A stretch of DNA of 60,133 bases, the filler included, from Sphacelaria rigidula (taxonomy: Eukaryota), in NCBI GenBank assembly GCA_964200075.2. It is 7 parts of 7 records of this genome, joined end to end, with 100 filler letters (N's around TTAATTAATTAA, not from the genome) between each part and the next. Parts side by side here need not be neighbours in the genome. Positions count along the whole stretch, not along the records: positions 8,606 to 17,110 come from CAXNAA020010946.1; 6 more parts are not named here. One strand, 5' to 3'. Of the stretch, positions 8,425-49,200 are shown in pieces. Below the pieces are notes generated by a model. The model did not search any database and had not been told where the DNA came from. It saw only the letters and a list, made by a program, of their open reading frames with translations. The first letter of the stretch is position 1; the number at the start of each line of letters is the position of its first letter. The translations under genes were made by a program, and so were the position numbers.

Positions 8425-8505
<81 letters not shown>

Positions 8506-8605: not shown

Positions 8606-11600
8606 CGGTTTATACAGCATGACTGCTTGCGCGTCATGGCGAGTCGACTCGTATAAATCTTGATTTGTCCCAACCGTGAAGCAATGTGGCACTGGACACG
8701 TTTGCCCGAGCCCAACGGGTACGCCTCGGACTCGTCCCTCATTTTGATATTTTAGTCGTAGGAGTGTCACCAATCACGACTCGATAATCGTCGGAGGACT
8801 GCACGTTCAAAAGCTGCCTCGGGAGATTTTTCCCGCGTTCCTGAATCTGAAGCTATGCAAAGACGATTATCTGAGACCTTTGCCCGCTTCACAGATGGTT
8901 CCGTGAAACTTTTCACTGCTGCCGGTCTTTGTGGAGGATAAACGTCTTGAGAAGTTTGATAGCACGGTACTCTATATCGGCGCGCAAAGTACGTGGACGG
9001 CAAACGCGATGTTCCTCGTGATGTGAACATATCACTTGTACCTGTATCATATTGCGCGCACTTCTGGGCGTGGTGTGCTGTGTTTGCTATTATTAAGCCT
9101 ACAGCAGAGAAAAATGTATTTGCCCATATACCGAGTGATGCGTAGTTTTTCACGTCAGGTCTTTTCCACACACGGGGCAACAGGCAGTCAACACATCCAA
9201 TATAACTGAAGTGTACCCCGTTTGGCATGGCCTACTACAGCTGTTGACCCACCTATTGCCTAGGATGTGAGACGTTTCTCGTCTCTCTTACTTATCCAAC
9301 TTCCTCAAGCGGTTCTACAATGACAATTCAAGACTTGTGCCCTATTCGAAAATGCTCACGTGAGATGTTTGCTTCTGCCGTCCCGTTCGCCGATGATCAT
9401 GTGACGCTTGTGTCGGGTTGAAAGATGCTCAAGCGAAAGCATGCCGTGCACGTGAATGCTCTCGCTAGGTTCAATTTTTCTCAAGGTTTCATTCGGCAAA
9501 CCCGAGATTTGATGGGCTGAATGTTCCCAGAGGACTAAGCATGCTCAGTAGCTGACTATAAAGCAGCACGGCACCCACGTCAGCCCACGCAGAGAATCGT
9601 TCGCGAGCATTTGTGCAAACGACCGTATCTTGATCAAGTAGCCTAACTTGTGCACATCGTCTCAGCAGTTGACCGTTGCGAATCGAGACCCTCGTGCATC
9701 ACATACTGGGTGTGCTGTTGGATGTTATTTTCCGCCCTTAACGGCACACCTTTTGGACCGCGTACACACACGACAAATGGAACCGTGAACGTTGGTGTCT
9801 TGGCTCTCCGTGGATCGAGATTTGTGGTTCTTCATGGGAGAATCTGACCACCGATGATCGCCTGCAGCTGCATTGCCCGCTGAGTGCCTGCGTACCTTTG
9901 CATGTGATTGGCGGGAGCACGGTGAAGGTGGTTCATAGGCGACGGATTTCTCCTCCAACCAAGATAGTGGAAAAGTCACTTTCAATGATATGCCGTGGAA
10001 TCGGATATCGCAGTTACGGCACCCCAACTGCTGGATTTTCAAGCCGTGTAGGCGCAGTGTTGGAAAGTTTGCATCAAGCCCTTGTCATGGCGTTGTGAAC
10101 GCTGCCAGCACAGCACGCCACGCGTAAGGTTTAACAGGAGATCTAGCACATGCTCACTCAGGGACGTATATGTCCGACAAACATTAAAACGCTCTTCGCT
10201 CTCGGAGGTATATGTCCAACACGCGTGGGTTACCTGTTCACTCTACAAGGGCTTCGTCGAATATGTGCAAGTATTCTTTCAGGTTAGAACAACTTCTCGG
10301 AACATCGGCAGATACGTGCTACTTCAGAACAAGGTCGTCCAACTTTCGTAGATATCGATGAGCTTAAAACAACCTTCCTGGACGCTGTCAAACATCTCCC
10401 GGCTTGGAGCAATTTTCTCGAACGTTTTCTACATATTTTTGACGTCAGAGCATGTTTATTCCAGAACACGTCTAGACAGAACGACGTATACAACGACGAC
10501 CATCTCATTGTTCAGGTTATCCGGAATGTCCGCACCTATCGTGTATAGCTATGGTGTATCCATCTACCGGGTTTCAAAGGTAAGTCTTTGTTCCCCTCAT
10601 CCACCTTGTGTCCCGCTCAACTTCTGGCGCTTTTGTGACATGACACTCCGATACGGCGAAGAGGAGCATTTAGTCGCCATGTACATCGTGTAGACACAAT
10701 ACACTCAGTACCCGAATTCCTCAATGAAACCGGCGACACAAATGATGGATACTCACTCTCAGGTCAAGTGGCAACATGAACAGTATAATACTGTAGCTTC
10801 GAACGAAAACCGATTGGTATTAGCTTGTACTTCTTGGAACGAATACGCGCATGCGTAGGGCAGGAACGCGCATGCGAACGGCAGAAAACAACAATCACGC
10901 ATACGGGACGCCATATGCGCGAGTGTGCATTGAGATCCGGCAGCTATTGGTATTCTCTACGCGTGTGCACATATCAGGTTCAACACGAGATTTAAAATAA
11001 CTGGTCTTTCGAGGGTCACGTGGGGCGCTGTTGAGGAAACAGGACACCTCTGCTATTTGTCCGGTTATCACATAGAACGAGAGTGAAGCAGATCAGTAGT
11101 CTTCGAGGTCAGGATGGTTTTCCCAAACGTGTACAGGTGTCTGTGAGTATATAATAACTTTCTCCAGCCTCACCAGGTATTGTGATAGTGCGAAGCAACC
11201 TCCTCAAGAGTTGACAGGTGTTGCGCAAGCCCGCATATCTGTGATTGACCTGTCTCATTCCGCCAGGTCTCATTTTCACGGCCAAGCGCGATTTGGCATT
11301 GGAGTTTCCGCTAGTAAGTGTTTCTGCAACACATATATTTATGTCTGTACTAAACCGGTCCTACAGTTGTTCCCGATGCGTACTGTCGTGGTGTAGAGGA
11401 TATCGTCATCTGCCGAATACCGCTGGGCTTGAGGTATGTATGGGTCAGTATATATGGACGGTCTTGCAATGTCATTGTTTCTGAAAATCAATTGAACTCG
11501 TTGCCAGCTGTAGCTCACGAACAGCTTTCCGGCGTTTGGCGATCGTGCTGCCCGCAGAGGTTGGATCTAGAAGGAGGACGACGCGAAGAGGAAACTAACG

Positions 11601-11619
11601 GCCGACGTCTCAACGATAG

Positions 11620-14600
11620 ATTGCACCAACGAGGGCTGTTCCGCGATATGATTGTACGGTTTGAAAGGCTGCACGGCAAAGTTCTACTCCTAGCACACCA
11701 GGGCGAGATTGGTAGAATGTGGTGAAGTCTGGCGACGAGGGCTGCCTCCAGCATCCATCGAATGGTTTACCAGGAAGCAAGACGAGAAGTTCTGCTCATA
11801 ACACGCCAGGGCGGGAACGATTCAAGTAATGAAACGGTGCGGCGAAGTGGGCTGTCTCAAGCAACAGTCGTATGGTATAGCAGAAATCAGGAAGGCGGAG
11901 TTCTGCTCCGAGCACGCCAGGGTGGGAATGGTGAATGTGAGGAGCAAGGGGTGCGGAGACGAGGGCTGTTTCAGGCAACCGTCGTATGGTGTGTCAGGAA
12001 GCAAGAAGGCGGAGTTCTGCTCTGAGCACGCCAAGGCGGGAATGGTGAATGTGTTGAGCAAGAGATGCGGCTACGAGGCGTGTCTCAAGCAACCGTCGTA
12101 TGGTGCGGCAGGAACCACGAAAGCAGAGTTTTGCTCCGAGCACGCCAGGGCAGGAATGGTAAATGTGATGAAGAAGAGATGCGGCTACGATGGCTGTCTC
12201 AAGCACCGGTCGTACGGTGTAGCAGGAAGCAAGACGACGGAGTTCTGCTCCGAGTACGCAAGGGCGGGAATGGTAAATGTGTTGAGCAAGAGGTGCGGCT
12301 ACAAGGGGTGTCTCAAGCAACCGTCGTATGGTGCGGCAGGAACCAGGGAAGCAGAGTTTTGCTCCGAGCACGCCAGGTGTGATGAAGAAGAGATGCGGCA
12401 ACGAGGGTTGTCTCAAGCACCGGTCGTACCGTGTAGCAGGAAGTAGGACGGCGGAGTTTTGCTCCGAACACGCCAGGGCGGGAATGATGAATGTCATGAA
12501 GAAGAGATGCGGCTACGATGGCTGTCGCAAGCAAGCGTCGTACGGTGTAGCTGGAAGCAGGACGACGGAGTTCTGCTCCGAGCACGCCAGGGCGGGAATG
12601 GTCAACATGGTGAGCAAGAGATGCGGCGACGAGGGCTGTCTGAAGCTACGGTTATATGGCGTAGCTGGAAGCAAGACGGCAGAGTTTTGCTCCGAGCACG
12701 CCAGGGCGGGAATGGTCAATGTTGTGAGCAAGAGATGCGGCTACGATGGCTGCCTCAAGCAACCGTCGTACGGTGTAGCAGGAAGCAAGACGGCGCAGTT
12801 CTGCTCCGAGCACGCCAGGGCGGGAATGGTAAATGTTGTAAAGAAGAGATGCGGCTACGATGGCTGTCTCAAGCACCGGTCGTATGGTGTAGCAGGAAGC
12901 AAGACGGCGGAGTTCTGCTCCGAGCACGCCAGGGCGGGAATGGTGAATGTGTTCAACATGGGGTGCAGAGAGGAGAGCTGTCTCAAGCGAGCGTCGTATG
13001 GCGTAGCAGGAAGCAAGAAAAGGATATTCTGCTCCAAGCACGCCAGAGCGGGAATGGCAAATGTAGTGCACAAGAGCTGCGGTAAGGAGGACTGTCTCAA
13101 GCAACCGTCGTATGGTGTAGTAGGAAACAAGAAGGCGGAGTTCTGCTCCGAGCACGCTAGGGCGGGGATGGTAAATGTAGTGCACAAGAGGTGCGGTAAG
13201 GAGGACTGTCTCAAGCAAGCGTCGTATGGCGTAGCAGGAAGCACGACGGCGCAGTTCTGCTCCGAACACGCCAGGGCGGGAATGGTGAATGTGAGGAACA
13301 TGGGCGGCGTAGACGGGGGCTGTCTCAAGCAAGCGTCGTATGGTGTAGCAGGAAGCAAGACGGCGGAGTCCTGCTCTGAGCACGCTAGGGCGGGAATGGT
13401 GAATGTGTTCAACATGGGGTGCAGAGAGGAGAGCTGTCTCAAGCACCGGTCGTATGGCGTAGCAGGAAGCAAGAAAAGGGTATTCTGCGCCGAGCATACC
13501 AGAGCGGGAATGGTAAATGTAGTGCACAAGAGGTGCGGTAGGGAGGACTGTCTCAAGCAAGCGTCGTATGGCGTAGCAGGAAGCAAGGAGGCGGAGTTCT
13601 GCTCTGAGCACGCCAGGGCAGGAATGGTGAATGTGAGGAACAAGGGCTGCGTAGACGGGGGCTGTCTCAAGCAAGCGTCGTATGGTGTAGCAGGAAGTAA
13701 GAAGGCGGAATTCTGCTCTGAGCACGCCAGGGGGGGAATGGTGAATGTGGTGGACAAGAGATGCGGCTACTGTGGCTGTCTCCAGCACCGGTCGTACGGC
13801 GTAGCAGGAAGCAGGACGGCGGAGTTCTGCTTCGAGCACGCTAGGGCGGGAATGGTCAACGTGATGGACAAGAGATGCGGCGAGGAGGGTTGTCTGAAGC
13901 GACGGTTGTATGGCGTAGCTGGAAGCAAGACGGCAGAGTTCTGCTCCAAGCCTGCCAGGGCGGGAATGGTCTATGTTGTGAAGAAGAGATGCGGCTACGA
14001 TGGCTGTCTTGAGCAAGCGTCGTATGGTGTAGCAGGAAGCAAGACGGCAGAGTTCTGCTCCGAGCACGCCAGGGCGGGAATGGTGAATGTGTTTAACAAG
14101 GGGTGCAGAAGCGAGGGCTGTCTCAAGCAAGCGTCGTATGGCGTAGCAGGAAGCAAGAAGAGGATATTCTGCTCCGAGCACGCTAGGGCGGGGATGGTAC
14201 ATGTAGTACACAAGAGCTGCGGTAAGGAGGACTGTCTCAAGCAACAGTCGTATGGTGTAGCAGGAAACAAGAAAGCAGGAAACAAGAAAGCAGAGTTCTG
14301 CTTCGAGCACGCTAGGGCGGGAATGGTAGGTGTGAGGGACAAGGGCTGCGTAGATGAGGGCTCTCATGCCAACGTCGTATGGTGTGGCAGGAAGCAAGGC
14401 GGAGTTCTGCTCTGAGCACGCCAGGGGGGGAATGGGGAATGTGTTGATCAAGAGATGCGGCTACGAGGGGTGTCTCAAGGAACGGTCGTATGGCGTAGCA
14501 GGAAGCAAGAAGGCGGAGTTCTGCTCCGGGCACGCCAGGGCGGGAATGGTCAATATGGTGAAGAAGATATGCGGCTACGTTGGCTGTCTCAAGCAAGCGT

Positions 14601-15682
14601 CGTATGGTGTAGCAGGAAGCACGGCGGCAGAGTTCTGCTCCGAGCACGCTAGGGCGGGAAAGACGAATATGTTGAACAAAAGATGCGGCGACGATCGCTG
14701 TCTCAAGCAATCGTCGTGTGGTGCAAAAGGAAGCAGGACCGCGGACTTCTGCTTTGACCACGCTGGGGCGGGAATGGTAAATGTGGTGAACAAGAGGTGC
14801 GGCGATGAGGACTGTCTCAAGCAACCGTCGTATAGTGCAGCACAAACCAGGAAGGAAGAGTTTTGCTCTGAGCACGCCAGGGTGGGAATGGTGAGTGTGG
14901 TGAAGAAGATATGCGTCTTCGAAGGTGGTCTCAAGCACCAGTCGTATGGTGTAGCAGGAAGCAGGACGGCGGAGTTCTGCTCCGAGCACGCCAGGGCGGG
15001 CATGATGAGCAAAGAACATGAGAAATCTGGCACGAAACGATGCTTCGAGCTGGGTATCTTCCAGAGGCACAACCTTCACGAGGCGCAATTCTTCCGACAG
15101 CATGCCACCACACACAACACAGCAGCAGTGCGCAACACCGCAGAAGTCAACGCTAGGGAGATCAACTCCGGCCTTAGCCCGGCGGAGGATGGTCGAGGAG
15201 GCGTTCCTGATGTACTTGAAACAAAACGCAAACGCCCAGCATGCTTGGGCTCTGGTTCAAGGCCCGTGATCGGTACTTGTCGTAGTGTCTGCCCCAATCC
15301 CAGGCGAGATGGCACAGCAGTACCATTACTCTCCGTACAGATACCCTCAGGATCTGATGGTAGGGTGTCGTTAGAGGCAAAGGCAGTGTCAGGAATAAAG
15401 GTAGAGCCGGCAGTCCCATTTTCACCGCACTGTGTCCCTACGGCCGGAGGGCGTAAAGAACAGGCTCCCAGTTCAAGTGGGACGGGTGGCGTAAGTTGTT
15501 GTGGTAGCTCCAGTTGCAGTGGTGCCGGTATGAGAACGGGATGGCTCGATGAGTCGTCAGCAGAGGTGTCTGGTTGCCTTGGCGTGTTCGATAATATGCC
15601 AGATGAAGATGCAGGGGAGAATTCGAGCGTGAAGTTTGAGCTAGGAGTGTCGAGTATCCCTCTTTGGACGTCCGGCAGTTGA
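11620..15682 (+). pseudogene. EsV-1-7 cysteine-rich tandem-repeat protein gene (~30 x 38 aa), frameshifted; unique Ser/Gly-rich C-terminal tail
   Basis: The 114-bp unit encodes KRCGYDGCLKQPSYGVAGSKTAEFCSEHARAGMVNV (C-X4-C-X16-C-X2-H), which matches the EsV-1-7 motif as I recall it. The gene is split over ORFs 11829.., 12328.. and 14354..15682 by a 14-nt deletion at 12377/12378 and a 2-nt deletion near 14360. Two degenerate units with stops lie upstream (~11620-11828). No introns within the array. Confidence 0.88.
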
Positions 15683-16261
15683 TGCATAATGTACCGTTTA
15701 TGATTTTGACCCTGTAGATTGGGTGCAGAGTATGCGGGCATGTGCTGGCGTGCACTATCGACACTTTTAGACCACGAGCGGTTGATCAAGGTGATTATTT
15801 TCTGTCGCTGCAAAGGTGTTCGTGAGGGATCAAGGTTTTCTTTTTCGACGATGCAAAGGTGTTCGTGAGGTTGTCGGGACCTGATATCTGAAAGCAACGT
15901 TTCATCAAGATCTCGTCGACGTGGATAAAGGCACTATGTCTACATGTTGCATGGGCGGGTCAAAAGTAGATGTACTGGAGTGGTCGGTCCCCTGATCAAC
16001 CGTAACGCTACTGGTGGACCTTCTATCCGTACCGCGATCTTGTCCACGTTTCCCTCATGGTGAAGTGAGTATTTCCTACGCTCTCATGTATAATGTACGA
16101 GGATGGAGACGTGAAGATCGAGGAGGGTCTGGCATCGGTCGCATTCATTTATCTGATGCCAGCATCCGTGCCCTCAATCAAGAGCACATTAATTGTTATG
16201 CATTGGTTGGTTTTCGCGAGAAAGTGATTACCACACCCTGGACAAAACAGTATGTTTCAAA

Positions 16262-17210: not shown

Positions 17211-17242
17211 ACCAGGGGGGGGGGGGAGGGAGGGGGGTGGGT

Positions 17243-17279
<37 letters not shown>

Positions 17280-18497: not shown

Positions 18498-20383
18498 ATT
18501 GCTCACGCCGTTTCATGGAGTTTGACCCGAAACTTTTGCACAGGTCGGACGAGTCATTACTCGTTTAGACGAGTGCACTCGTGGGTGTTTTTTCAAAGCA
18601 CAACGAGCAGTGACTCGAGTGCTTGCCCTATTAGTTGTTTCCACAACGAGCAATACCTCGAATGCTTGCCCCATTCATTTGTTTCCACAACGAGCAGTGA
18701 CTCGAGTGCTTGCCCAATTATTTTTTTCCCCGAACAAGCAATGACTCGAGTGCTTGCCCTATTATTTTGTTGCCACAACGAGCAATGACTCGAGTGCTCG
18801 CCCTATATTTTTTTTCCCACAATGAGCAGTGACTCCAGTGCTCGTGCTCGAGTCATTTCCTTCTTCACGTGGTATGACCCGCTTGCTTGTGTCTTTTCTG
18901 GACAATCCAAGAACCAATCATAAATCACTGAAGTAATGGACGAGTGTGGCACGAGACATAGTGCAAGCCTAGTGAACCAAGGGTACGATTTGGTAATATT
19001 GTGACCACTACAAATCGTACTACCCCCTTTGAATGGTATGCTTGTGGCACTCTTCCACACCATCGTGTGTTCGCGGGAGAAATGATCAATAAGGCCCCTA
19101 CAGCATCATTTTTACGAAAAAATAGCACAAATGGGCAACTACCGCAAACACACGATCGTGGGGAGATGGGTCTCAAGCGGAATACGTACCCCTTTTCGAA
19201 TCGATCATTGCTCTGTAAGAAAAATGGGGGCGCAGAGACCTACCTGGACTAGACAACCGTGGCTCCGTCCACCACAATACCATTCAGTAAAATAAGCACC
19301 AACGGATATCTGTCAAGGTGTCTATATCTTGGCTTTTTCTACACCCGCCCCGGCCCCTGGGGTGTCCGCCTCTGACGGAACTACATTTCTCTCGTCTTTG
19401 GCCCCCGCGACCATGTAGAAATCCAAGTCGTCGAGTTCCACCAGGCACGCAGGCAAGTTCATGAACACCTGTTTTTGCGGTTGACACTTGTACATGTGCA
19501 GATATGCGTATGAACTTCAAGATTCTTGGTTCAAGATCGTCAAAGAACTCATCATAATTATGAGCTCGCCGGATTGCTGACTCCTCGACTGAAGTCGTTC
19601 ATCACGAGCAATGGCTCGAGTGCTCGCCCTATTTATTTGTTTCCCCAACGAGCAAAGGCTCGAGTGCTCGCCCTATTCATTTGTTTCTCCAACGAGCAGC
19701 CCAACGAGTGCGAGTGCCACGAGTCACACTCGTGCTCGTCCGACGTATGAAATTTTGCATACGGATGTTCTGAGATATTTATAGGGGCCTTATGAATACG
19801 GTCTTTCCATCCATTAATTTATTTTTTCGCCAGATATCTGGGGTCCCGCGCGGGCACGTCTCACACTGCCTCCTGGGACCCCGAATATCTGGCAACAAAA
19901 ATGGAAGTCGAAATGTGGGAACCACCACATAGAAGGGACATCTTCCCACCAGTGTGTGTCCAGGAATCACCCCTTCACCTTGGCGACACCATGAGCTAGC
20001 TCGAACGCTTCACGCACAGAAGGCCCCGGGTTCAAATCTCCGATCTTCCCAACATGGTGGGAGCCAAAACGAATGGTGGATATCCTCTGAAAATCTCCTG
20101 CGATGATTGTTGGCCGGATCTTTTAACACACGTAGAATATATATGACTTGAAAGGCAACGTTCCAACCGCAAAGGTTACTTCTACGAACCCTCCAAGAGT
20201 TCCATGAAGGGTGGGCGCGAGTGACGCGGAAACCACCCCACAGACGGGACAACTTCCCTCAAGTGTCTGTCAAGGAATCACCTCTTTACAAAAAAGCCCT
20301 ATTCATACAGCTCTTTTAAATATCTCAGAGAGCACACGTTTGCGAAATTTCAGGGTCTAACTCAAAACAACGGCGTGAGGAAT
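18498..20383. mobile_element. Outer MITE with ~90-bp imperfect TIRs; the left TIR is split by a nested hAT-like element
   Basis: Joining 18498-18538 to 19758-19807 rebuilds CTCACGCCGTT...GAGTTTGACCCGAAACTTTTG-CATACGGATGTTCTGAGATATTTATAGGGGCCTTATGAATACGG. This is similar to the reverse complement of ~20292-20383. Confidence 0.7.
18539..19749. mobile_element. Non-autonomous hAT-like element with subterminal tandem repeats
   Basis: TIR CACAGGTCGGACGAG versus (reverse complement) CATACGTCGGACGAG, 13/15 match. 8-bp TSD AACTTTTG / AAATTTTG, 7/8 match. About 6 units of a ~43-bp repeat (ACAACGAGCARTGACTCGAGTGCTYGCCC + T-rich linker) at 18600-18858, and 2-3 more at 19602-19700. Confidence 0.8.
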
Positions 20384-25815: not shown

Positions 25816-26540
25816 CGGAGACCAATCCCAAAATAGATGTACTGTCTGGAGTGCTGTTCAAAGAGATGATCTACAGAGCCTGCGCACCGGAGACTGAACA
25901 ACGCTAGATAGGAAGATCCAAAAAAGCAAGAACAAAAAAGGACAACCTGATGGTAACGAGGAGGGAAAGCGGGGAACTATGACCTTCCTCGGGTTCCAGT
26001 CAAGTAGCATCGTCATGGAAGCACAACAGACAGGGCATGTCTAGCCTACACACGGCGTATAGCGCTATCAGCAAAAAACAGAATCTACGCTAATTCGGAG
26101 GTTATCCGCGTATTCCTACATCTGGGTATGTCAGGAGAAGGGTGGGAGAGGCCTATGTTGTTCAGTCTTCCGTGCTGTCTTTGATTTAGGCCAAGTACCT
26201 CCGGACGTTCAGAGATGGCCCTAACCAAACACAGTGGAGATTACCTTCGCATAACAACCCAATTGGTGTACTCGCACGCTACTCTTAGCACAGTTGGAAA
26301 CACACGGCGAACGGGGAAAACACTATTTTTTCGTGGTTCAGGACATGTGCGTTTGTGAGTGTGGGTGTGTTTGGGGAGGGGGGGGGGGGGGGTTCGCACA
26401 CAGTTTTTGTCCCTGGAGCCATTTTGCGGGGGGCGATAATTTCATCTTTTTTTTTTTTTTCAANNNNNNNNNNGCAAAAGGCGCGGAAGGGGGGAACAAC
26501 TGTGTTTTTTGGGGGGGGGGGGGGGGGGTGTGGGGGGGGT

Positions 26541-26573
<33 letters not shown>

Positions 26574-41811: not shown

Positions 41812-42034
41812 TGTAATGCGTGAGAGGATCGCGTGCTTAGAGGACCGCGCCGTAGTTCAAAACACCTCAAGATCGAGGTTTTTCAAAACCAATCGGGTCA
41901 GTCCCTGGAGATACCACGCCCCTGACCATAACCCTAACACTAACCATAACCCTAACCCTAACCCTAACCATAACCATAGGGATGTTCAAATTCCGATGCG
42001 GTCCTCTAAGCACGCGGTCCTCTCAAGCATTACA
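41812..42034. mobile_element. Second copy of the telomere-repeat-carrying TGT...ACA MITE
   Basis: 37-bp TIR TGTAATGCGTGAGAGGATCGCGTGCTTAGAGGACCGC / GCGGTCCTCTAAGCACGCGGTCCTCTCAAGCATTACA with 2 mismatches. Internal CCCTAA/CCATAA tract at ~41925-41978. Flanks AGGG/AAGG (3/4). Confidence 0.8.
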
Positions 42035-46200: not shown

Positions 46201-49200
46201 CCTCGCCTTGGGCTTGGTCACAAACCCGTTCTGATCTGTCTTCCAACTGAAAAGACATTTCGTACCAATGGCTTTACGACCCCCCGGAAGCTTATCTACC
46301 AGTTCAAAAGTATCTTTTTCTAGTCGACCTGTGAACTCACTGCGCATTGCGTGCTCCCACCGTATTCGCCTCTTTGACTTTACTAGTTGACGTCGCGTTT
46401 TCGGTGCCGGCTCTATATCTGTTAAATGTATCCGTTTCATTCCATCTCCCCGCCTTTGCCACGAAGGTTACACATGAACTGGCGAAGTAGATGCTGCCAT
46501 GTAGACCCGCCAGTCGTGCCAACAAGCTGCCCTCTAAAGCTCGGCTTTGCTGTCGAGTGCGTCCAAGTACACGCGGTTCAGGGTCAGGGGAGTTCATCCC
46601 CGCCTCGCTAATGTTGATGTTGTCCAGCTGACCGCCTTCCATTATCGGTGATGCTTGCTGTTGCTGAACGCGAGTTTGTTGCCGGGGGCGACCGAGTGCA
46701 CGCGGTGCTTGATCACTCGTCTAGCGGAAGGTGGTGTCCCGTGCAGCATCAGGTTCACCATCCTCACCCTCCCCGCTTGATGATTCATCACCCGAGGATG
46801 GCTTTACCAGGGATGTTTGTATACTGCCCTCCCTGATCGAGGATGTATATTCTTCGGTGGGATCAACATCGCTGGTATCTTCCCTAACTCCGTCGTCGGA
46901 GTTGACCTCTCCGCTTGTACCCAGCGAAGTACCCCTCCCTCCCAGGGAAGGAGAAACTTCTTGCTGCATGGATACAGAAAGTTGTTTCCATGTCACATTA
47001 CGTATCGTGATTACGTAACGACTCTTTGTTAGCACGCGCATGGAATCACGAGGATGATCTTGGGGGGGGTCCAAGATGAACACATTTTTGTGCCTTGGCT
47101 ATAGATTCCGAAGTACGTTGCTGTTTGCAGTATCCCGGCTTGAAAAACGGCAATAACGTGAGTTTGGAAACTACTCCGTGAAACATCTCGTTCGGTAACT
47201 GCATCCCAGGGTTAGCAGTCGTTGCAGCTCGGTTCAGGGCGTCGGCGGCAAAATTAATAGATTCAGCCCACATCGATCCCGGGACGTCAACGCTGTACAA
47301 ACGGCCAGCATCTATCCTAGCCGCCATTGCGATTGTCTCGAACATCTCAATTATACGTTCTGCCACTCCATTGTATTGCGGGCTGTCCGTTGGAGTGAAC
47401 AAATGCTTGATACATCGTTCCCTGCATAGGTCACTAAAACCTCCCTCGAACTCCCCACCGGAATCGCTGCGTGCACATTCCACAATTGAGGGAATACCAT
47501 CTGCTCTAACATCTGCCAAAAACAGCTTGAAAAGTGCTGTTGTATCTGTCTTCTGGCGTGCAAAGTACACCCAAAATCTTCGCGAGAAATCGTATGGGAT
47601 CAACATGAAGTACCTTCTACCACCCAGACTCTGTACACTCTTGGGTCCACACTGATCAACAAACACACGTTGTAGTCTCTTCACTGCACGCGTGGTCGTC
47701 TCCCTTGGAATCGGCCGTCGTAGGCCCTTCGCCAGCGAACACCCATGGCATGGCTCCAGCTCTCCCTCAAGCACCACACCAATAGCCTCAGCCGTTTCTA
47801 GAAACAGTACCTCGTTCAGGTGACCGTACTATTGGTGGAACAAATTAATGTTGACGGGGCCATTGACGGGTAAAAAGCCAAGGGCTAGCACAGCATTGGC
47901 AAACTCGTTTTCGGGTGAATCAAACTCACCGTCCAACGAGCTTGGGGACGACGAGAGGCGAGTAAAACGGATTGCGTTCATGTTCCCTTCGCAAGGGAAA
48001 ATCAAGTCCTGCCCATTATTCATGGGTACACGTACTCCTGACGTATGTACCAGTGGTGGGTGGTCATTGTCAGCCGCCACCATGATGGGAAAAAGGTTGA
48101 AATCTAGCATAGGTACATGTGCTACTTTTCCGACATGTAATCGGAACTTAGAACCGCCAATCTGGAAAAGTAAAGCAAAGCTTCCATACCCCTCGATGGG
48201 AATTGTCGCACCATTTGCGATGGTCAACCCGACGTTACCGTTTGCAATGGTCAACCTGACGTTACTGTCGGTCTTGACATCATCGGACATACCCTCCTTC
48301 ACAGTAGTAGTCATACACGACGACCCACCGTCCGCTATCCATATTTCACCCCCCTCATGCTTTGCTTGTACCAACATAGCCTTTTCCCTGGACCCAATCA
48401 ACGATACAATCTCGCCTGATGCTTCTTGTGCAATGAACATCCCGCTGATGTGGTTGAATCGCACGTCTTGTACTACCAGGGCTGATGTCTCCGGTCTAGG
48501 ACAGTCATTCGCAACATGACCAAGCTGGTCACACTTGTCACACTTCGCCTTCGGATAGTAGCGGCTTGTGTGTCCAGGTTCATCACAGCGCCAACACTTT
48601 CGAGTTTCCAATCTTGACGCAGGCGGTACAGAACTCCCTGGTTTCGGTGCCGTCGTCGGAGCAGAAGTCGATGTCGGCTCGTTGTTGTTGTTATTGGTCC
48701 GGCCGGAGTGATTCGCTCGCCCCCTGCCGTTGCCGAATTGTTGTTGATTGTTGTTGAGAAGGAACGTAATGAGCGCCAGAATGTTGGAGGTGTCTCTATT
48801 AGGAGTAGGAACGGTGCTCCGTCTCGAAAGGGATGCGTGGTCAATGGTCAAACGACTAAGGCAAGCAACACATGAGAACGCCCCCCCCCTGCCGTTGCCA
48901 CCACCACGCTTGCCCCGACCAGTACCGCGGCCGGTCGCGGCGAACAGAGCACTGCTGCTGCCTCCCTTCCCGGTCGGTTTCAGCGACAAGTATTTGCCTC
49001 TGACAGCCGCTCTCATTTGCGCCGAGGCACTTTCGTGCCATTCTTCCGCCCTGTCTCCTGGTCGAACACCGCCAGAGCGTGTTCGGCCACCGAGGTCAAA
49101 GCCAACTCCCCTGGTCGTTGCTCCGTCTCGAAAGGGATGCGTGGTCAATGATCACACGACTAAGGCAAGCAATAAATGAGCACGCCCCACCCCGCCCCCC

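Follow-up and report, generated by a model that had tools for sequence, protein, structure and literature searches.

EsV-1-7 proteins make up one of the largest gene-family expansions of the brown algae, a family that includes the developmental regulator IMMEDIATE UPRIGHT (IMM) of Ectocarpus. In the parts of the published accounts covered here, the family is described as greatly expanded, with 95-335 genes per species that often lie in tandem gene clusters, and as possibly a new class of zinc finger whose biochemical function is unknown and of which IMM is the sole genetically characterised member (10.64898/2026.04.27.720984; 10.1101/2024.02.19.579948; PMC12993054; PMC7457493). Those same parts of the literature name neither a ligand nor specificity residues for EsV-1-7. 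We analysed a 60,133-base stretch of Sphacelaria rigidula DNA (hereafter the window), in which 30 head-to-tail units of 114 nt, or 38 amino acids (aa), each occupy positions 11622-15025 on the + strand, and which share with the EsV-1-7 family (Pfam PF19114; Ectocarpus IMM; gene 7 of EsV-1) the cysteine-rich motif C-X4-C-X16-C-X2-H, known from brown algae and giant viruses, the 38-aa period and the brown-algal setting. We lean slightly towards the view that the locus is a recently inactivated long EsV-1-7 array in which hot spots of amino acid replacement would mark a ligand-facing surface.

Among familiar tandem recognition systems, the C2H2 zinc finger has the ligand pattern C-X2-4-C-X12-H-X3-5-H and a beta-beta-alpha fold, and transcription activator-like effector (TALE) and pentatricopeptide repeat (PPR) proteins are metal-free helical solenoids in which variation is essentially confined to the code residues. 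The closest working analogy to our locus is a polydactyl C2H2 array with fast-evolving contact residues, as in KRAB-ZNF proteins and PRDM9, arrays that likewise combine a minisatellite-like coding sequence, duplication of units or blocks, a conserved zinc scaffold, few replacement hot spots and degenerate fingers. The units themselves differ, being 38-aa CCCH modules whose model contains no recognition helix, and a C2H2 identity was rejected because their ligand spacing departs from the C2H2 pattern and no Pfam zf-C2H2 match was obtained. TALE repeats and PPR motifs resemble the array as tandem modules of ~34-38 aa with a localised variable site, whereas the EsV-1-7 unit, a predicted zinc module rich in beta structure, varies in four patches, and its model gives no confident superhelix.

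The extent of the array was established by Tandem Repeats Finder, which reported a period of 114 nt and 28.8 copies at 11731-15008 (score 3288), by unit alignment, and by nhmmer, which with a profile made from 16 in-frame units recovered 30 units in succession on the + strand (11623-15020) and only four weak matches (E 0.7-6.2) in the rest of the window. No single open frame spans these units; two deletions split them over three open reading frames (ORFs), all of which exceed the 25-bit gathering score of PF19114 (EsV_1_7_cys): ORF1 with E 3.2e-71 and 235 bits over 5 stretches, ORF2 with E 5.1e-251 and 811 bits over 17 stretches and ORF3 with E 1.2e-64 and 214 bits over 6 stretches. These profile matches, with which the 38-aa tandem period agrees, bear out the EsV-1-7 identity proposed in the initial annotation of this DNA, and its list of the residue pairs that follow the second Cys is reproduced exactly when U03-U30 (the units being named U01-U30) are each translated in their own frame. 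It had estimated about 30 repeats, in keeping with our count, and had reported a single frameshifted unit, where we find two breaks in the body of the array, a 14-nt deletion in U07 having been overlooked. The ligand pattern is complete in 23 of the 28 units U03-U30, and one C/C/C/H zinc ligand is missing in the other five (U06, H to Y; U16, C1 to G; U21, H to P; U25, C6 lost; U30, C6 to G). As had also been claimed, the array is basic, with 169 K+R against 95 D+E over 1064 residues and a net charge of +74, or +2.6 per unit.

Individual units differ from one another by 4-31% of their nucleotides, and the closest pairs lie at fixed offsets of 10 (U12/U22, U13/U23 and U14/U24), 3 (U15/U18 and U16/U19) or 2 (U05/U07), from which we conclude that the array grew by duplication of multi-unit blocks. 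The ratio of nonsynonymous to synonymous substitution (dN/dS) in the scaffold is 0.33 for the 11 independent sister pairs and 0.21 when all 378 pairs are taken. The 28 units contain no in-frame stop, whereas 2000 simulations without constraint, run at the divergence that the units show from their consensus (12.5% on average), gave 16.6 stops on average and never fewer than 4. The units therefore diverged while the frame was under selection, and the frame breaks, if real, are recent. We conclude that the predicted zinc scaffold diverged under purifying selection.

The array is followed at 15020-15682 on the + strand by a non-repeat C-terminal tail of ~220 aa that contains KRKR and two psi-K-x-E motifs (IKVE and VKFE), which by consensus patterns would be a nuclear localisation signal and SUMO sites, respectively. 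In BLASTP comparisons the tail matched two 484-aa EsV-1-7 proteins of S. rigidula, P0003 (36% identity, E 5e-17) and P0006 (34% identity, E 3e-22), with which KRKR and both K-x-E motifs align, and this shared tail places the locus in an array-plus-tail subfamily. Used alone, the tail found no match at E <=0.001 in a database of 5.8 billion proteins and no usable match in the ESM Atlas. A search with ORF2 returned 211 database proteins, the best of which were unnamed S. rigidula proteins with up to 62% identity, followed by relatives from Ectocarpus, Pylaiella and Ascophyllum and by numerous entries that are metagenomic or virus-like; the database does not contain the protein of the window itself. 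On these matches the locus is a nuclear brown-algal EsV-1-7 gene, closest to S. rigidula proteins, and a previously undescribed member of the family.

Statistics on homologues were drawn from the best 120 of the 211 matches, which were near-length, and units were counted in 5 longer proteins as well. Neither set contained a protein with more than 11 units, so that the 30 units described here form the longest array among the 125 homologues examined; the commonest spacing in the homologues was again 38 aa (367 of the spacings tallied). One of them, P0121 (2055 aa), has 11 units joined to UCH, DUSP and zf-MYND domains in what is possibly a chimeric gene model. The Pfam model Zf_WRKY19 (PF24906) gave whole-protein matches in P0014, P0096 and P0121 (34-42 bits against a cut-off of 27) that overlie the C-X4-C half of EsV-1-7 units with no individually significant stretch, and it had no match at E <=0.01 in the window ORFs.

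Replacement hot spots in the array and in the family

Amino acid entropy over U03-U30 is highest at unit position 3 (2.46 bits), followed by positions 36 (2.38), 35 (2.24), 10 (2.21), 4 (1.82) and 9 (1.70). When the 11 independent sister pairs were compared, the pair at positions 9-10 ranked first, position 10 differing in 7 of 11, position 9 in 6 and position 36 in 5, with positions 19, 35, 37 and 38 differing in 4 each. By the Nei-Gojobori method, codons 9-10 show a proportion of nonsynonymous differences (pN) of 0.337, which is 2.2 times the whole-unit proportion of synonymous differences (pS, 0.151; Fisher p 0.007, rounded counts) and exceeds the pN of the remaining positions (~0.076; Fisher p 1e-6); their own pS is 0.029, and synonymous-only changes are absent from these codons in the 11 pairs. 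By class, dN/dS is 0.58 in the loop at 2-5, 0.40 at 17-21 and 0.78 (range ~0.8-1.0) in the linker at 35-38, beside the scaffold value given above. The localised variable pair of the initial annotation thus stands in so far as 9-10 is the site most often replaced between sister units, but it is not exclusive, positions 3, 35 and 36 having equal or higher entropy. The entropy and dN/dS analysis that had been suggested was applied to the array and to the database homologues; in the array it placed pN at 9-10 above the whole-unit pS and found the linker and loop to vary almost as much.

At the pair, the hexamers CAAGCG (8 units), CAACCG (6) and CACCGG (5) encode QA, QP and HR, which together account for 19 of the 28. 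Position 9 is encoded by CAA or its one-step neighbours CAC, CGA, CTA, CCA and GAA, and position 10 by CCG or its one-step neighbours GCG, CGG, CAG, ACG and TCG; of the 6 replacement amino acids within one step of each codon, 5 are present at codon 9 and 5 at codon 10. What had been taken for the small alphabet of a code is the one-nucleotide neighbourhood of CAA-CCG (Q-P), and it would reflect mutational accessibility from an ancestral Q-P together with the copying of unit types.

A related pattern was found in 707 units of the 120 homologues, where mean within-array entropy is highest at position 9 (1.80 bits), followed by positions 35 (1.57), 36 (1.49) and 7 (1.47), and is 0.75 at position 10. 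Sister pairs of units, 80 in all from 49 homologues, differ most often at position 36 (0.54 of pairs), then at 11 (0.50), 9 and 35 (0.44 each) and 7 (0.38); for positions 8 and 10 the fraction is 0.16-0.17. Nineteen residue types occur at position 9, the leading ones being Q (169), R (159) and H (64); at position 10, 669 of the 707 units have P (490), A (146) or S (33) and only 10 have R, a residue found there in 8 of the 28 window units. The alternation 7/9/11 would be the pattern of one exposed face of an extended strand. DNA arrays found elsewhere (3 loci in a metagenome scan, and 0 and 1 in two viral scans) amounted to 23 units, too few and too distant for dN/dS, and four arrays of near-identical units on viral and metagenome contigs differ mainly just past the second Cys and in the linker, in numbers too small for statistics. 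In the metagenome and viral-contig arrays L002:58-513 and L004:2025-2582, whose units are nearly identical (CIHPNCK..P.YNVEGETK..), differences fall mainly at positions 8-9 (VQ, TR, VR and II) and 35-36. Judged from the alignments of the window array and its homologues, replacement is genuinely concentrated just past the second Cys, and in modified form (7/9/11 and 35/36) this hot spot is shared by the EsV-1-7 family as a whole.

We propose that an N-terminal array of predicted CCCH zinc-binding modules grew to 30 units by block duplication in a gene that kept the ~220-aa C-terminal tail of its subfamily with its KRKR, resembling a nuclear localisation signal, and that the frame was later broken twice, the 5' units being dead. 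The hot spots may mark the ligand-facing surface of each finger, a surface that would be either unconstrained or under diversifying selection, like the contact residues of polydactyl C2H2 arrays. The hot spot past the second Cys and the linker provide a testable guess at the recognition surface and point to residues for mutation or swapping.

Several points weigh against this proposal. The analysis yielded no evidence for any ligand, and the best of the weak fold matches described below (Z <=3.0) are to RING, B-box and nsp13 zinc modules, which are mostly protein-binding. Position 10 is conserved in the family, and its variability in the window is possibly relaxed constraint in a dying copy. 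The pN of the pair does not differ significantly from that of the linker (p 0.06), and the low pS at codons 9-10 inflates their local dN/dS. Multi-nucleotide changes in the hexamer are possibly single conversion events that inflate the counts, CACCGG (H-R) recurring in 5 units of differing loop types and U13 and U17 showing a 3-nt difference. If each hexamer is scored as one event, 8 of the 11 sister pairs differ (our own tally from the unit translations), which is near the neutral expectation that we estimate at ~0.9 changes per 6 nt at a pS of 0.151, and positive selection is therefore not established. Furthermore, the ORF pieces are open for 205, 695 and 442 codons, and the gene is possibly intact in other individuals; the second break rests on the assembled sequence, the read contigs supporting the first break only.

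The hexamer tally is also what pure drift would produce, if positions 9-10, the loop and the linker were unconstrained surface shaped by neutral mutation, block duplication and short gene conversion, with no role in recognition. Such a history would likewise yield 5 of 6 one-step amino acids at each codon, an identical CACCGG in 5 units and a linker dN/dS of ~0.8-1.0. It accounts less well for a pN at 9-10 that exceeds the whole-unit pS, for the lack of synonymous-only changes at these codons, and for the recurrence of the same hot stretch in 49 other proteins at alternate residues that fit one exposed strand face, and we regard it as a possible but rather unlikely origin of the hot spots.

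Predicted structure and candidate ligands

AlphaFold2 models were run without metal. Five units (U10-U14, 190 residues) gave a mean predicted local distance difference test score (pLDDT) of 82.9 and a predicted template modelling score (pTM) of 0.44; short strands occupy unit positions 12-14 and 31-33, and helices of at least 4 residues are absent. A single unit gave a pLDDT of 90.3 and showed isolated beta-bridges at position 9 and at the residue that precedes Cys1. If these two bridges are partners, the variable end of the linker and position 9 would lie side by side. The pTM of 0.44 weakly favours separately folded beads on a string over a rigid solenoid of the TALE or PPR kind, and the superhelical solenoid that had been envisaged from a model of several repeats did not emerge, there being neither a helix of that length nor a confident solenoid.

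Fold searches with these models returned little. A sequence search of the PDB with five units gave 0 matches at E <=10, Foldseek against the PDB gave none at E <=0.001 with either the five-unit or the single-unit model, and the wide search of VIA-align gave one row for five units at Z 2.3 and six rows for one unit at Z 2.0-3.0, values too weak for fold assignment. The top row is the RING of MEX-3C (Z 3.0, root-mean-square deviation 2.7, 38 residues), matched by a unit with only four conserved ligands, and the other rows are IDOL, BIRC7, the B-box of TRIM5 and the zinc-binding domain of nsp13.

With these rows as its only structural neighbours, and with the P0121 model joining its 11 units to UCH, DUSP and zf-MYND, the EsV-1-7 array might instead be a scaffold for protein-protein interaction, built of RING- or B-box-like zinc modules, rather than a reader of nucleic acid. 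The fold matches lie far below the noise level of the tool (Z <8), however, a RING requires eight ligands and two Zn where the EsV-1-7 unit has four ligands, and the possible chimerism of P0121 removes force from the domain argument. In addition, the charge of +2.6 per unit and a tandem layout with short linkers fit nucleic-acid binders better, the point about layout being one of general knowledge. A scaffold role strikes us as doubtful, if still worth serious attention. If the hot spots do face a ligand, as we propose, nucleic acid would be the likelier partner, at somewhat less than an even chance, and protein the less likely one.

Frame breaks and decayed units

Decay is most advanced at the 5' end, where sequence inspection, three-frame translation and tblastn show that U01-U02 (11622-11837, + strand) contain in-frame stops at 11649-11651 (TGA), 11691-11693 (TAG) and 11799-11801 (TAA), and U02 a 1-nt deletion. 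When the 120 N-terminal residues of P0003 and of P0006 were compared by tblastn with 11300-11960, the N-terminus of P0003 aligned from ~11607, and the window has no ATG where P0003 starts. ORF1 (205 aa; 11829-12446, + strand), delimited like ORF3 by ORF scan, Pfam and translation, begins at the first ATG past the last 5' stop and encodes U03-U06 and a truncated U07 before running off frame. The first break lies at 12377-12378 (+ strand), where unit alignment and sequence show U07 to be 14 nt short of the unit consensus, a deletion that shifts the array from the frame of ORF1 into that of ORF2. ORF2 (695 aa; 12328-14415, + strand) follows the array frame from 12394 and encodes U08-U24 and the start of U25; U24 carries a 15-nt in-frame duplication (GNKKA twice) at 14259-14293 on the + strand, detected by Tandem Repeats Finder (period 15, 2.3 copies) and by unit alignment. 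The second break, at 14362-14363 (+ strand) in the unit alignment of the assembled sequence, is a 2-nt deletion in U25 that destroys the second Cys and shifts the array into the frame of ORF3, and the same unit has a 3-nt in-frame deletion near 14398/14399. ORF3 (442 aa; 14354-15682, + strand) comprises the remainder of U25, U26-U30 and the C-terminal tail.

Read data bear on the first of these breaks. In eight read runs of one organism (X1-X8), 72-76% of sampled words were present, and contigs from X1, X4 and X6, three runs from two studies among which the source sample is possibly included, match the window over 12349-12525 without a difference or a gap, the 14-nt deletion included. Since these contigs carry the same sequence, the deletion is not an assembly slip, with the proviso that the source sample may be one of the three. 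Among the contig pieces listed, none spans 14362/14363, and no indel row was reported there.

The gene could still be intact, encoding a 30-finger protein of ~1,280 aa, if the breaks were errors of assembly or were alleles peculiar to the individual that was sequenced. In favour of this, all three pieces read open in the array frame, the 28 units contain 0 stops, the tail ORF stays open to 15682 and the second break is seen in the assembled sequence only. Against it stand the exact recurrence of the 14-nt deletion in contigs of three runs, the three stops in U01-U02 with the absence of the ancestral start, and the loss of a ligand in 5 of 28 units, and we consider an intact gene improbable. 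The copy in the S. rigidula genome has probably been inactivated or truncated recently.

Many 'joints' in the read contigs were considered as splicing and rejected, their two sides being separated by unrelated letters or joining different units; we read them as cross-joins of paralogues or units in de Bruijn contigs. The X1, X4 and X6 contigs are identical to the window from 11556 on and unlike it before 11556. An 18-nt piece of their letters before that point is absent from the whole window, and the metagenome run X9 stays collinear with the window; the divergence at 11556 might reflect splicing to a distant exon, a branch of the graph or a structural allele. A 599-aa antisense ORF at 12652-14451 (- strand) and other long ORFs in alternative frames over the array are by-products of a stop-free repeat unit and give no sign of extra genes. 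Strand asymmetry is strong across 12001-16000 (GC skew +0.30 and +0.23, AT skew +0.19 and +0.08) and mostly smaller outside it (|GC skew| <=0.16), the coding strand of the array being purine-rich.

Modular recognition and the surrounding window

A bolder extension of our proposal would make EsV-1-7 arrays modular and evolvable readers of nucleic acid, the third kind of such readers, in which every 38-aa zinc module would offer a few bases a single face of a beta-strand (residues 7/9/11, here 9/10) and, with it, the adjoining linker residues 35/36, brown algae and their giant viruses would retarget their arrays by shuffling and mutating units, and the broken 30-unit array would be a recent discard. 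We count this as a long shot.

The modular code suggested in the initial annotation, in which each unit would read one base of DNA or RNA as in TALE or PPR proteins and residues 9-10 would be the specificity pair, analogous to the repeat-variable diresidue, can point to 9-10 as the top replacement site between sister units with a pN above the whole-unit pS, to three pair types (QA, QP and HR) that make up 19 of 28 hexamers on differing loop backgrounds, and to a basic array with Q/H/R-rich pairs, but we hold it to be very improbable, because position 10 has no more entropy than positions 3, 36 and 35, the alphabet is the one-step neighbourhood of CAA-CCG, 669 of 707 family units have P, A or S at position 10 and 19 residue types are found at position 9, replacements in the family concentrate at 7/9/11 and 35/36 rather than at 9/10, helical repeats are absent from the model (pTM 0.44), and the array is frame-broken. 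A TALE repeat as such (33-35 aa, two helices, variation at 12/13) was rejected on the lack of any helix of at least 4 residues and on variable positions at 3, 4, 9, 10, 35 and 36, and no TAL-effector Pfam match was obtained in the window ORFs at E <=0.01; the PPR motif, a 35-aa helical hairpin, was rejected on the lack of a PPR Pfam match and on a model with beta elements only. Frame-broken as it is, and with the two-residue code unsupported, the array is of limited use as a programmable system.

Elsewhere in the window, 23 other ORFs of at least 150 aa were found, one of which has a Pfam match, to a copia-like gag. This 439-aa ORF at 47829-49148 (- strand) matches zf-CCHC (E 2.8e-8) and reaches 23.1 bits with Pol_BBD, below the 27-bit cut-off, and looks like a fragment of a copia/Ty1-like gag-pol. 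No viral genes were seen among the Pfam matches of the 23 ORFs, which is a weak test, and Rfam gave 0 matches in the window. An interstitial telomere-like repeat at 41920-41975 consists of 3.1 copies of the 18-nt unit CCCTAACCATAACCCTAA, and long homopolymers occur at 17215-17278 (G x64), 26511-26572 (G x62) and 8459-8505 (A x47). Two nearby arrays with a 44-nt period, at 18599-18842 (5.6 copies) and 19604-19711 (2.2 copies), have similar-looking units.

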